Below are positions 5,568-21,649 of a stretch of 24,956 bases of DNA, one piece after another. The position numbers and the translations under genes are program-made. Every line of letters starts with the position of its first letter. The stretch's first letter is position 1. The stretch lies in IMG/VR virus record IMGVR_UViG_2923292180_000001. The stretch is one strand, 5' to 3'. A model generated the notes under the pieces. The model was not told the origin of the DNA. It was given only the letters and a program-made list of their open reading frames with translations, and did not search any database. This DNA is from a virus. Lineage: Duplodnaviria > Heunggongvirae > Uroviricota > Caudoviricetes.

Positions 5568-5840
5568 ATACAGCGAACTCCATTGGTTTAGTTGGATATT
5601 TACTGTGCTGGACAAAAACGGTTTGCGGGGAAATCTTAGTTAAGTAGAATGACTGCGGGTGCTTGAGGCTATCTGCCTCGGGCATGGACACCAACGGCAG
5701 ATAGAGAAAAGCCCCAGTTAACATTACGCGTCCTGCAAGACGCTTAACATTAATCTGAGGCCAATTTCATGCTAGACACATGTAGGTTAGCCTCTTACGT
5801 GCCGAAAGGCACGGAGAAGCAGGCTATTGTTAACACCAAG

Positions 5841-12321: not shown

Positions 12322-12534
12322 TCATGAAAGGTAAACATTGGCAGCTGAAGGGCCACGCAGACCATTTATCCGGCAAAATTCCACGCGTAATCCGGTGGTA
12401 ATTTCTTCTGCATCGCGGAGATTGAGCGCTGAAACATGAAGCTGGACATCGATACGACCATCGGATGGGGTGATAAGACCCTTGCCGCTTTTGCCGTCAA
12501 AGGTTTTGACAATTCCTGTCATTTTACGGGACAA
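12322..12534 (-). CDS. cspF: Cold-shock-like protein CspF
   Basis: 70-aa product [70 protein letters not shown]; divergent from cspB. Confidence 0.9.
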
Positions 12535-12684
12535 AAAAATTCCTTAATACTGATAACTTGGCGCACTATACACACGTTCCTGAAGAAAGCTATAGTTTTT
12601 TGATGGGGTTGAAGATGGCTGGATGTCTAAAATAAACATTGCTTCATATGTTCAACTATGCGTTAATGATTGCGTCGGTTTGAA

Positions 12685-12834
12685 GAACAGACGATATACG
12701 AAGTAGTTTACTAAAGCAGTTCTCATTTCAGGTGTTATTCACTTATTCCTTCTTTGAGTCTCTCCAATTAAGTACGAAGTCGTTTCTGTTATGCAAACCA
12801 TTTATGCCGAAAGGCTCAAGTTAAGGAATGTAGA
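12685..12834 (+). promoter_or_regulatory. cspB 5' untranslated leader with cold-box-like element and cspA-type upstream box
   Basis: AACAGACGATATACGAAGTAGTTTACTAAAGCAG resembles the cspA cold box (TGACGTACAGACCATTAAAGCAG); GCCGAAAGGC lies just upstream of the SD (AAGGAATG) before the cspB ATG, as in cspA. Recalled from memory, not aligned. Confidence 0.4.
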
Positions 12835-13050
12835 ATGTCAAATAAAATGACTGGTTTAGTAAAATGGTTTAACGCTGATAAAGGTTTCGGCTTTATTTCT
12901 CCTGTTGATGGTAGTAAAGATGTGTTTGTGCATTTTTCTGCGATTCAGAATGATAATTATCGAACCTTATTTGAAGGTCAAAAGGTTACCTTCTCTATAG
13001 AGAGTGGTGCTAAAGGTCCTGCAGCAGCAAATGTCATCATTACTGATTAA
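12835..13050 (+). CDS. cspB: Cold-shock protein CspB
   Basis: 71-aa product [71 protein letters not shown] with RNP1/RNP2 motifs. Confidence 0.95.
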
Positions 13051-13331
13051 AATTCATCGCTCGTCTGTATACGATAACGAAGAAGGCTGATGCCTGAGTA
13101 GAGATACGGACAGAGTAGTGAATATTGGATCTCTTTAATAAAAAGTAAGGAGGTCCAATACATGAAACAATGGCTAGCATATTTGGCAAAATCTTAATCA
13201 GGAAAAGTATGCTAACCATTGTGGTGAAGTGCAGGTTTGCTGCATGAATAGTTTTACAGCAGAAGCTAACTGCTGGCATGGCAAAACAAAGTGCGTAAGT
13301 GGATGACTCCCACAAAAAGCACCACAATCTC

Positions 13332-13357
13332 AAACCCGCTCAGGCGGGTTTTTTATT
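13332..13357 (+). terminator. Hairpin terminator between cspB region and the convergent small zinc-ribbon gene
   Basis: AAACCCGC-TCAG-GCGGGTTTTTTATT; strong on the plus strand, weaker but possible for the minus-strand gene ending at 13414. Confidence 0.5.
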
Positions 13358-13413: not shown

Positions 13414-13584
13414 TCAGGCTACAGCTTTAAGATTTGTCTGGAATACTTTGTTGCAATGAGGGCAGATCAAAAGGGCACCTTTTTGTACTCTTGAAAAACT
13501 GTGTTCTGACTCTTGGGTGCAGTTTGGGCAGGAACATTTAACGAGATAATTACGGCGTGATTTTGAGTTTTTACGTTCTGACAT
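13414..13584 (-). CDS. Small zinc-ribbon protein (56 aa, two CxxC pairs); possibly YnfU-like
   Basis: ATG at 13584 with upstream AGGAAAAG; product MSERKNSKSRRNYLVKCSCPNCTQESEHSFSRVQKGALLICPHCNKVFQTNLKAVA (CPNC...CPHC). Gene name is a guess from memory. Confidence 0.5.
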   Translation of the reverse strand: MSERKNSKSRRNYLVKCSCPNCTQESEHSFSRVQKGALLICPHCNKVFQTNLKAVA

Positions 13585-13803
13585 AGGCTTTTCCTGTATA
13601 AATGGCCGTATACAGTACACTAAATATGAAAACATTTCTCGTATTATTATTTTATATATGACTTTCTTTCAAAATAATTACCCACATTTTTAATGTGTAT
13701 GTTTTTTTAGCGCCGTTGAGAACAACGTGTGCTGTCAAAACTCCCCCGTAGACTCCGATCTTTTCAAACATATTGCACCATCCGTGTACATCGGGGTGAG
13801 GAT

Positions 13804-15359: not shown

Positions 15360-15721
15360 GGTAATATTAAATCGGAACATTTACATCGCGGAATGTAAAA
15401 TTTAAATAAAAAGGACTCTTCCATGAGCCAAAATTCCTGAAATCTTAAGGGTAAGATAAAAGGTCTTAATCAGAATGACACGTTTTATTAATAAATAAAG
15501 CCATTCTTTCATTGCTGTGTTTTTCTTTACAAAAGTAATCCTTGCTATGGGTGGTTAATCATGCGTTAATGGTGTTCTGGTTTGTTACAAATTTATCTGA
15601 AGCAGTCATTGTTATAATTTTATTATTTGTACCTCTTGAGATTTCCTTGTTGGTTTTTCTCTCTGATATTTTTTTTCGGACCATTCTGCCCAAGGGCTAA
15701 TTTCTTCAAAAGGTAATAATT

Positions 15722-15934
15722 ATGTCTAACAAAATGACTGGTTTAGTGAAATGGTTTAACCCTGAAAAAGGTTTTGGTTTCATCACGCCGAAAGATGGCA
15801 GCAAAGATGTGTTTGTCCATTTCTCAGCAATTCAGAGCAACGATTTCAAAACATTAACTGAGAATCAGGAAGTTGAATTTGGTATTGAGAACGGACCTAA
15901 AGGTCCTGCCGCTGTTCATGTAGTGGCGCTTTGA
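15722..15934 (+). CDS. cspI: Cold-shock protein CspI
   Basis: 70-aa product [70 protein letters not shown]; long AT-rich leader upstream. Confidence 0.95.
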
Positions 15935-16138
15935 GGTAGACAATATTACAAACCATATTCACTTTAGATGCCCGTGTTGTCATGGTTCCCAGTATAGAAC
16001 ATCATCTTTTGATGTTTCTGACATGAATCCTTTCGGGGCAAAATGTATCTTTTGTAAATCAATGATGATTACATTTGATAATATTTCACAATACTTAAAT
16101 GCCAGCCGTCTGTCGTTGGATTTAAAAAAGTGAAAATG

Positions 16139-16436: not shown

Positions 16437-16579
16437 TTTGATGCTATTGCATTGATAATTCAGGAAAATTCTCTTTGTCTGTTTGTGTAAAATTTAGACT
16501 ATCGTATGTTGATTATTGCGATGTTTCATCTTATCTTTTACACGTTTGCTGATCCTACCCACGTAATATGGACACAGGC

Positions 16580-17446
16580 CTAAGCGAGGTTCTTGTTTTC
16601 AAATTGTTCCGGACTGAGGCCGCCACACCAACTGTGCCGCCGCCACCGATTGTAATCACATTCGATATAATTAAACACCGTTGCCCGCATTATTTCCCGG
16701 CTGATAAAGTGTTCTCCATGGATACATTCCACTTTCAGCGAATGAAAGAAGCTTTCCACGCAGGCATTATCGTAGCAGCAACCTTTTGCGCTCATACTTC
16801 CACGCAGATTATGCCGCTTCAGTTGCGCCTGATAATCTGCTGAACAGTACTGGCCTCCACGGTCCGTGTGAACGATAACGTTCCGGGGCCTCTTACGCCG
16901 CCACAGCGCCATCTGCAGGGCATCGCAGGCCAGTTGCGCCGTCATGCGTGGCGACATTGACCAGCCAATAACGGCACGTGACCACAGGTCAATGACCACT
17001 GCCAGATACAGCCAGCCTTCATCTGTACGTAAGTACGTGATGTCTCCTGCCCACTTCTGGTTCGGGCCACTGGCGTAAAAATCCTGCTCCAACAGATTTT
17101 CTGACACAGGCAGGCCGTGTGCGCGGTAGCTGACCGGGCTGAACTTCCGGGAGGCCTTTGCCCTCAGTCCCTGACGGCGCAGGCTTGCCGCCACGGTTTT
17201 TACGTTAAAGGGGTAACCCTGAGCACGCAGTTCATCCGTCAGGCGTGGGGCACCGTAACGCTGTTTTGACCGGGTAAAAGCCGCGAGGACAACGCTGTCG
17301 CAGTGTTGGCGGAACTGCTGACGCGTGCTTATCCTTGTCCGCCGCTGACACCACGTATACCAGCCGCTGCGGGCCACCCGGAGCACGCGGCACATTGCTT
17401 TGATGCTGAACTCAGCCTGATGTTTTTCAATAAAGACATACTTCAT
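16580..17446 (-). CDS. insF: IS3 transposase OrfB (InsF), DDE catalytic domain
   Basis: 288-aa product [38 protein letters not shown]... recognised as IS3 InsF; overlaps the orfA stop (ATGA), as in the frameshift-fused IS3 arrangement. Confidence 0.9.
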
Positions 17447-17751
17447 TTCAGGCGCTTCGCGAAGTATGTCGCGGCCTTTTGGAGGATAGCCAGCTCTTCA
17501 TCCCGTTCTGCCAGCTGGCGTTTGAGACGTGCAATCTCGGTAGACATCTCCAGTTCACGTTCAGAAGACGTCTGCTGATTTTGCTGTTTACTGCGCCAGT
17601 TGTAGAGTTGTGATTCATACAGGCTGAGTTCACGGGCTGCGGCAGTAACACCGATGCGTTCAGCAAGCTTCAGGGCTTCACTGCGAAATTCAGGCGAATG
17701 CTGTTTACGGGGTTTTTTACTGGTTGATACTGTTTTTGTCATGTGAGTCAC
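17443..17751 (-). CDS. insE: IS3 transposase OrfA (InsE), helix-turn-helix / leucine zipper
   Basis: 102-aa [58 protein letters not shown]... recognised as IS3 InsE. Confidence 0.9.
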
Positions 17752-17868
17752 CTCTGACTGAGAGTTTACTCACTTAGCCGCGTGTCCACTATTGCTGGGT
17801 AAGATCATGCACCATATAATCGACTTACTGTGTAACTGGAAAGTCATAACAGACTAAAAGAGGAAATG

Positions 17869-21074: not shown

Positions 21075-21649
21075 TGGCATTCAGAATGAGTGAACAACCA
21101 CGGACCATAAAAATTTATAATCTGCTGGCCGGAACTAATGAATTTATTGGTGAAGGTGACGCATATATTCCGCCTCATACAGGTCTGCCAGCAAACAGTA
21201 CCGATATTGCACCGCCAGATATTCCGGCAGGCTTCGTGGCTGTTTTCAACAGTGATGAGGCATCGTGGCATCTCGTTGAAGATCATCGGGGTAAAACGGT
21301 TTATGACGTGGCTTCCGGCGACGCGTTATTTATTTCTGAACTCGGTCCGTTACCGGAAAATGTTACCTGGTTATCGCCGGGAGGGGAATATCAGAAGTGG
21401 AACGGCACAGCCTGGGTGAAGGATACGGAAGCAGAAAAACTGTTCCGGATCCGGGAGGCGGAAGAAACAAAAAACAGCCTGATGCAGATAGCCAGTGAGC
21501 ATATAGCGCCGCTTCAGGATGCTGTGGATCTGGAGATCGCAACGGAGGAAGAAACCTTGTTGCTGGAAGCCTGGAAAAAGTATCGGGTGTTGCTGAACCG
21601 TGTTGATACATCAACTGCACCGGATATTGAATGGCCAGCACTGCCGTAG
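21074..21649 (+). CDS. tfaQ: Tail fibre assembly protein Tfa
   Basis: 191-aa product [71 protein letters not shown]... is nearly identical to lambda Tfa from memory. Confidence 0.9.

Follow-up and report, generated by a model that had tools for sequence, protein, structure and literature searches.

A small open reading frame (ORF) on the minus strand of a Caudoviricetes sequence (IMG/VR record IMGVR_UViG_2923292180_000001; 24,956 nt, hereafter the window) raised the question of which protein it encodes, where translation of that protein starts and whether it serves the phage. The ORF listing of the window gave a single minus-strand frame at this place (13414..13635, 73 aa, ATG start). As the original prediction had pointed out, a shorter frame lies inside it, which begins at an internal ATG (13584..13582), ends with TGA (13416..13414) and encodes a 56-aa product, MSERKNSKSRRNYLVKCSCPNCTQESEHSFSRVQKGALLICPHCNKVFQTNLKAVA. 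Of the window's 111 ATG-initiated ORFs with 40 aa or more, this was the sole one of 100 aa or less with two CxxC motifs, CPNC (19-22) and CPHC (41-44). The two CxxC pairs and the basic N-terminus had been described correctly: residues 1-16 contain six Lys or Arg residues versus one Asp or Glu, and the entire chain has a pI of 9.6 and a net charge of about +6.6. The number of cysteines had to be corrected from four to five (positions 17, 19, 22, 41 and 44), four of which lie within the CPxC knuckles.

A 401-nt query around the ORF was 100% identical to E. coli K-12 MG1655, in which the corresponding feature is ynfU (b4776; WP_211180497.1), annotated in RefSeq as "putative zinc-binding protein YnfU". 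The surrounding 6.2 kb were 99.94% identical to the MG1655-derived record. At the RefSeq locus, ynfU is located between cspB and the Qin holin gene (D8B36_RS11130, named essD there). The protein matched the Pfam family PF23499 ("YnfU") over its full length (1-49 of 49; 107.3 bits, gathering score 27) and the NCBIfam family NF038384 ("YnfU family zinc-binding protein"; 1-51 of 52; 79.4 bits, cut-off 36). It is near certain that the ORF is ynfU of the E. coli K-12 Qin prophage, the type member of PF23499 and NF038384; the sequence in the window is identical to it, the locus between cspB and the Qin holin gene is the same, and the comparison showed no difference. The guess that the ORF might correspond to a small protein known from K-12 Qin was right. 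The ynfU locus was present, normally as a single copy, in 1650 of 5426 complete E. coli genomes (~30%).

The name of the gene, its b-number, its Pfam and NCBIfam families and its translation are already on record. Weaver et al. (2019) identified ynfU in ribosome-profiling data on stalled initiation complexes, and their chromosomal SPA-tag immunoblots indicated that YnfU was the most abundant among their new small proteins, with high levels in stationary phase at normal temperature (bioRxiv 10.1101/511675). They also drew attention to its two CPXC zinc knuckles and to PA0128 as a moderate match in threading (bioRxiv 10.1101/511675). PIRT-seq redetected ynfU independently in 2025 (PMC12350097). 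The check that the original prediction had proposed, against the small-protein set of E. coli K-12 and start-site Ribo-seq data, is positive in published data (bioRxiv 10.1101/511675). None of the papers found to mention ynfU reports a function. A silver-nanoparticle evolution study recorded an intergenic ynfU/cspB polymorphism at a frequency of 0.28 in one population, which is uninformative in this respect. The narrow Enterobacterales family, the purifying selection, the chromosomal setting and the csp linkage described below go beyond the literature.

Table 1. Location of ynfU, its flanking elements and the associated cold-shock genes in the window.
Feature	Position	Strand	Remark
cspF	12322..12534	minus	third gene of the recurrent ynfU/cspB-like/cspF-like module
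cspB	12835..13050	plus	convergent with ynfU; stops 363 nt apart
GC-rich hairpin and T-run between the convergent genes	13332..13351	plus	cspB terminator (terminator scan, sequence)
ynfU CDS	13414..13584	minus	56 codons and TGA; identity to MG1655 ynfU, family scores, dN/dS
Upstream in-frame extension giving the 73-aa ORF	13585..13635	minus	most likely promoter and 5' UTR, non-coding
Shine-Dalgarno AGGA	13592..13595	minus	7 nt 5' of the ynfU ATG; read from the sequence
Family-conserved GTGTAnnGT block	13612..13620	minus	at least 80% conserved in 64 non-redundant upstream regions from more than 15 genera
Weak -35-like GAGAAA	13635..13640	minus	putative; 17 nt 5' of TACTGT; aligns with GAGCTA/AAGCAA of other genera
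Alternative sigma-70-like promoter TTGAAA-18-AATAAT	13643..13672	minus	consensus scan, 10 of 12 matches; predicted start near 13636
ynfQ (RefSeq 'cold-shock protein')	15945..16133	plus	second small C4 zinc ribbon, directly after cspI

For the start codon, 88 homologous loci were compared. Opposite M1 of YnfU, 86 of them have ATG and the other two GTG, and an SD-like AGGA/GGAG/GAGG motif was found at -14..-5 in all 88, in keeping with the Shine-Dalgarno sequence that had been assigned to the gene. An in-frame stop occurred within 17 codons upstream of the YnfU start in 40 of 80 non-identical homologous upstream regions, and profile matches to the 73-aa form began at its residue 18. As judged by these comparisons, the conserved start of ynfU is that of the 56-aa protein and not that of the 73-aa one. 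Because of the stops, the profile matches from residue 18 and the two candidate promoters, both of which have their transcription start at or after ATG 13635, the upstream extension was read as non-coding. We see practically no chance that the true product is a 73-aa protein starting at ATG 13635: the frame is indeed open there and some homologue database entries are annotated with N-terminal extensions, but stops break the extension in half of the homologues, it has no Shine-Dalgarno sequence and overlaps the conserved promoter-like block, the family profiles leave it out, and start-site profiling and RefSeq alike give 56 aa. The stops were the ground on which the 73-aa frame was rejected, and it is effectively refuted already. 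It is near certain that ynfU stands alone as a gene, has a promoter region and a Shine-Dalgarno sequence of its own and is translated from ATG 13584 into a basic protein of 56 residues. The claim of a real small gene at the internal ATG thus held, given the conservation of the start and of the Shine-Dalgarno motif, the upstream stops and the published start-site profiling and immunoblot.

The region upstream of ynfU had the same layout in more than 15 genera: a GAGCTA-like hexamer, a spacer of ~17 nt, GTGTAnnGT and then CC..CAGGA. In the window, TACTGT (13617..13612, minus) reads as a -10-like hexamer in which T1, A2 and T6 are kept, and its predicted transcription start is near 13605. Going by the sequence, the conserved block would consist of a weak -35 element, a -10-like TAnnGT and a short 5' UTR, and is a putative promoter. 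The alternative TTGAAA-18-AATAAT site was found only in Escherichia-type loci and was absent from other genera. The consensus scan found no excess of sigma-70-like sites in the ynfU upstream region over shuffled sequences. Downstream of ynfU, the hairpin at 13332..13351 is followed on the minus strand by TTTGAG only, making it a weak ynfU terminator at best.

Further elements of the upstream region were considered and rejected. The palindrome CTGTATA-N8-TATACAG (13615..13594), which overlaps the Shine-Dalgarno sequence, was a candidate for a regulatory hairpin or operator in the 5' UTR; its fold z-score was just -1.09, it was absent from other genera, and its spacing, judged by eye, is unlike that of a LexA box. 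For a Zur box, the left half alone looked similar in E. coli by eye, and it was not conserved across genera.

The YnfU family is tiny. A word-indexed search of 5.8 billion sequences gave 49 clusters, and 41 were obtained from 1.84 billion representatives in an exhaustive profile search. Credible relatives were stand-alone proteins of ~55 aa or read-through/fused gene calls. Long multi-stretch matches to the profile were rejected as repetitive zinc-finger proteins, and none was a revealing domain fusion. All named sources were Enterobacterales, with the exception of a few records under the names Veillonella, Kocuria, Vagococcus and Azospira, for which a contaminated or mis-binned assembly is the simplest reading. 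Among the contigs with ynfU, the labels on L008, L030, L040 and L042 are Veillonella parvula MAG, Vagococcus, Kocuria sabuli and Bacillota MAG. L008 was 98-99% identical to the Qin sequence of the window over ~7 kb, and L040 and L042, 0.7-1.6 kb long, contain a cspB-like gene as well. These odd labels most likely stem from contamination or mis-binning, not from true hosts.

The median dN/dS of the ynfU homologues was 0.136 (947 pairs), and the family is under strong purifying selection. C22, C41, C44, P20, S29 and L39 were invariant down to 30% identity, and C19 (at least 90%), H28, S26, P42 and F48 were near-invariant over the same range. C17 was lost in distant members (30-42% identical), and the predicted zinc ligands are therefore C19, C22, C41 and C44. 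SEHSF, a surface motif between the knuckles, was invariant in close relatives; the most distant members keep S29, and H28 nearly so. The C-terminus was variable in the family alignment. Of two AlphaFold models, the one built with the more diverse alignment had a pLDDT of 75 (80-86 in the core) and the other 66; in the former, YnfU has four short strands (14-18, 25-29, 38-40, 47-49), one helix and disordered ends. A single C4 zinc ribbon, predicted to bind one Zn2+ via Cys19, Cys22, Cys41 and Cys44, is well supported, and so is a flexible Lys/Arg-rich tail formed by the first ~13 residues. The original assignment to a zinc-ribbon type was borne out by the family models, the conserved cysteines and the four modelled strands, with zinc binding as a prediction.

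With four conserved cysteines as predicted ligands in 56 residues, and given its abundance, YnfU could be imagined to buffer or deliver zinc, and the literature speaks of it as possibly metal-binding and nothing further. We consider this role very improbable. One structural zinc per chain makes a poor buffer, the invariant non-ligand SEHSF motif and the purifying selection on the whole core point to a binding surface, and there was no conserved Zur-box-like site upstream of the gene.

In the window, ynfU lies between the Q antiterminator gene (quuQ/ydfT) and the lysis genes, on the opposite strand, and is convergent with cspB as originally stated (Table 1). The functional phage Tritos has the same layout. 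Lambdoid phages, Qin and Tritos among them, carry the ynfU module as cargo between Q and the lysis genes. The gene has the marks of prophage cargo (a 'moron'), namely a prophage location, a promoter-like block of its own and expression in uninduced K-12. It is not restricted to phages and prophages, as it occurs in non-phage chromosomal contexts in several genera. In Klebsiella, Enterobacter, Kluyvera, Kosakonia and more distant Enterobacterales, ynfU was found among metabolic or housekeeping genes, and its 5-6 kb flanks in these non-Escherichia genera contained no phage genes. Outside Escherichia, ynfU is mostly located in the ordinary chromosome rather than in a prophage. In Kluyvera its neighbour is the thrS-infC-rpmI-rplT-pheST cluster, beside which a YmcF-like gene, ynfU and two csp genes adjoin one another (L089/L090, 5403-7204).

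The original prediction had placed the protein among prophage regulators or anti-defence factors, and this framing was not supported. PADLOC gave 0 families for YnfU at E up to 1. The best PHROG match (E 0.0023) was partial and to a family of unknown function, and none was significant. The homologues in other genera lie mostly in the ordinary chromosome, and a csp gene is the recurrent neighbour. We regard it as improbable that YnfU serves the phage as a regulator, an anti-defence factor or a superinfection-exclusion factor. Such a service would suit its cargo position between quuQ/ydfT and the holin gene on the opposite strand and its expression in the lysogen (bioRxiv 10.1101/511675), and phage records that hold ynfU do exist, including Tritos, 2H10 and HannyBb; however, there are only 8 of them among 50,697, Qin-type lysis genes were present at just about a dozen of 87 ynfU loci, PADLOC had no match and PHROG none below E 0.002, and the surroundings in the genera named above are metabolic or housekeeping.

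The neighbour that recurred was a cold-shock gene. A csp gene lay within 1.5 kb of ynfU in 61 of 87 loci, a count inflated by shared ancestry, and the linkage was seen in at least 10 of 12 groups of loci with different flanking genes. The commonest layout (28 of 87 loci) is that of Qin, with ynfU, a convergent cspB-like gene and a divergent cspF-like gene. In phage PHB10 the ynfU/cspB-like/cspF-like trio is found next to umuDC, in the cargo end. The 4.6 Mb of E. coli K-12 contain nine csp genes, and at this density chance adjacency of ynfU and a csp gene would be below 1%. The 5' UTR and CDS of cspB matched the Rfam cspA thermoregulator model (12674..13066, plus), and cspI likewise matched it at gathering score (15576..15961, plus). 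A csp gene matching this model was present in 11 of 12 scanned ynfU loci, directly beside ynfU in 10. Approximately 30% of the ynfU loci, as well as the most distant family members, had no csp gene nearby. From the variety of flanks and orientations we argue that the module moves as a unit. These results showed that ynfU is not phage-specific and that it forms a small mobile module together with cold-inducible csp genes. Taking the identity, the fold and the genomic setting of YnfU together, and leaving its mechanism aside, we are highly confident in this description.

The second most frequent neighbour of ynfU was a 75-aa protein, MKKVIVFFNAEPCKVITV... (L068, 5408-5635, and 23 other loci; 24 loci), with no match in Pfam or NCBIfam. 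Apart from the csp genes, no conserved protein-coding neighbour of ynfU pointed to a partner.

Its charge, the csp linkage, Foldseek matches to proteins of archaeal ribosomes and weak profile matches to eL42 suggest that YnfU may bind RNA or a ribonucleoprotein such as the ribosome, alongside the cold-shock Csp RNA chaperones; we put this forward tentatively. Contact with RNA or the ribosome would be made through the basic tail and the ribbon's conserved face, and the protein would work beside these RNA chaperones in the cold or in stationary phase. The top Foldseek matches were small zinc fingers on archaeal ribosomes (probability 0.75-0.96), non-significant at E of 0.1 or more, and the profile matches to ribosomal protein eL42/L44e were likewise non-significant. 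A search of the PDB with the two AlphaFold models gave no Foldseek match at E of 0.001 or below, the best being 0.11. The HVO_2753-like zinc fingers bound to archaeal ribosomes (9o17_AZ, 9fhl_C, 6ydh) resemble YnfU in being basic proteins of 50-62 aa with CPxC motifs, and they were 26-33% identical to it over ~36 columns, at non-significant E of 0.1-0.9. They differ from it in having four CxxC motifs, where YnfU has two, and in belonging to a different domain of life.

Several observations weigh against an RNA or ribosome factor. The structural matches are non-significant and the zinc ribbon is a generic fold; some 30% of the loci and the most distant members are without a nearby csp gene; ynfU is on the strand opposite to cspB and has its own promoter, which leaves no link by co-transcription; and its linkage to csp genes may reflect shared mobility rather than shared function. 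The level of YnfU is also high in stationary phase at normal temperature, which indicates that cold is not required for its expression (bioRxiv 10.1101/511675).

The main rival to RNA or ribosome binding is that YnfU binds and modulates a larger protein, e.g. RNA polymerase, a chaperone or an enzyme, with the ribbon serving as a protein-protein module; this mode of action is common among bacterial small proteins, and for YnfU its sole lead is the likeness to DNL-type fingers. This is conceivable, though we consider it somewhat unlikely. Weaver et al. expect most of the new small proteins to bind larger ones (bioRxiv 10.1101/511675), and the best sequence-profile match of YnfU in the PDB was Tim15/Zim17 (2e2z; E 0.012, non-significant; Foldseek probability 0.92, E 0.14), the DNL-type finger that escorts mitochondrial Hsp70. 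The aligned motif, CxxC..S.H..S...KG..LI.CPHC, resembles the conserved core of YnfU, and the DNL-type fingers (Tim15/Zim17/Hep1, PF05180) have the core C-x2-C...S-x-H...K-G...L-I-x-C-P-H-C in common with it. These matches, however, are non-significant, and YnfU scored 13.5 bits against PF05180 (zf-DNL; gathering score 27), on which ground membership of that family was rejected. YnfU is half as long as a DNL-type finger, has no C-terminal D-N-L segment and has a variable C-terminus instead. The neighbourhood offers no conserved protein-coding candidate for such a partner besides csp.

Membership of the PhnA/YjdM family was rejected as well. The N-terminal ribbon of these proteins (PF08274; P. 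aeruginosa PA0128, PDB 2akl) was matched with a Pfam E of 1.3e-4 and a PDB profile E of 0.47, at 22.4 bits against a gathering score of 30.8; PhnA proteins have an extra C-terminal domain, which YnfU does not have.

The closest parallel in setting is the YmcF-like family (PF23641), whose members are, like YnfU, C4 zinc ribbons of ~60 aa encoded directly beside csp genes. YmcF adjoins cspG, and in the window the YmcF-like ynfQ of RefSeq (62 aa) follows cspI. Homology between the two families was undetectable when the window's own YmcF-like protein was compared with YnfU (hhalign probability 0.5%, E 0.11). Their knuckles differ, CPCC and CIFC in YmcF-like proteins versus CPNC and CPHC in YnfU, and so does their orientation: YmcF-like genes are located downstream of csp genes in the same orientation, whereas ynfU is usually convergent and has its own promoter. 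A more specific form of RNA or ribosome binding would make YnfU a zinc-ribbon factor for RNA or the ribosome that acts as dedicated partner to the cold-inducible Csp proteins and belongs to a mobile 'cold-shock module' formed with a cspB-like and a cspF-like gene. This module would move between chromosomal sites of Enterobacteriaceae and be taken up as cargo by temperate phages, and the YmcF/YnfQ ribbons beside cspG and cspI, which are unrelated to YnfU, would be a second, convergent case of such a pairing. We think this rather unlikely to hold in full. With csp genes linked to ynfU in ~70% of the loci, cold-shock and RNA-chaperone biology is favoured for testing over phage defence. YnfU is among the more abundant uncharacterised small proteins of E. 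coli, and the csp linkage is a lead to its function; the expected payoff is modest, namely a further minor accessory factor in a stress response that is already well studied.

Other features of the window were also recorded. A block of ~120 nt (13205-13326, plus), between the cspB stop and the hairpin at 13332-13351, recurred with 70-80% conservation in Kluyvera, Kosakonia, Enterobacter, Superficieibacter, Yokenella, Scandinavium, Citrobacter and phage PHB10, and its place was in every case between the cspB-like gene and ynfU. The stretch GTGCGTAAG within it was near-invariant. RNAalifold predicted several short helices, one of them with compensatory changes (AU:8, UA:2, GU:1, GC:1), and G-U pairs favoured the cspB strand. 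The block matched no Rfam family at gathering score. It is a candidate for a structured 3' UTR element or a 3'-derived sRNA of cspB. The annotators of PHB10 called a 41-aa ORF over its counterpart. Also in the 3' region of cspB, a perfect 9-nt Shine-Dalgarno sequence, TAAGGAGGT (13146-13154, plus), is followed after a 7-nt spacer by an 11-codon ORF, MKQWLAYLAKS (13162-13197). This ORF was confined to Qin-like loci of Escherichia, where it varied by one or two substitutions, and it is absent from the annotation of the RefSeq record.

The product of ynfQ matched PF23641 (YmcF-like) over its full length, and its first codon reads as Ile in straight translation. In the RefSeq record ynfR comes after ynfQ; VanOrsdel et al. 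(2018) used the name ynfQ for a different ORF of 37 aa. Compared with the MG1655-derived record and with other Qin-like loci, the window contains an insertion of 1258 bp (16550-17807), whose minus strand encodes an HTH_Tnp_1 protein of 102 aa and an rve integrase-core protein of 288 aa; it is therefore an IS3-family element. Rfam matches at gathering score were also obtained for the sok antitoxin RNA and IS009 (5657-5828, plus; 21417-21615, plus).
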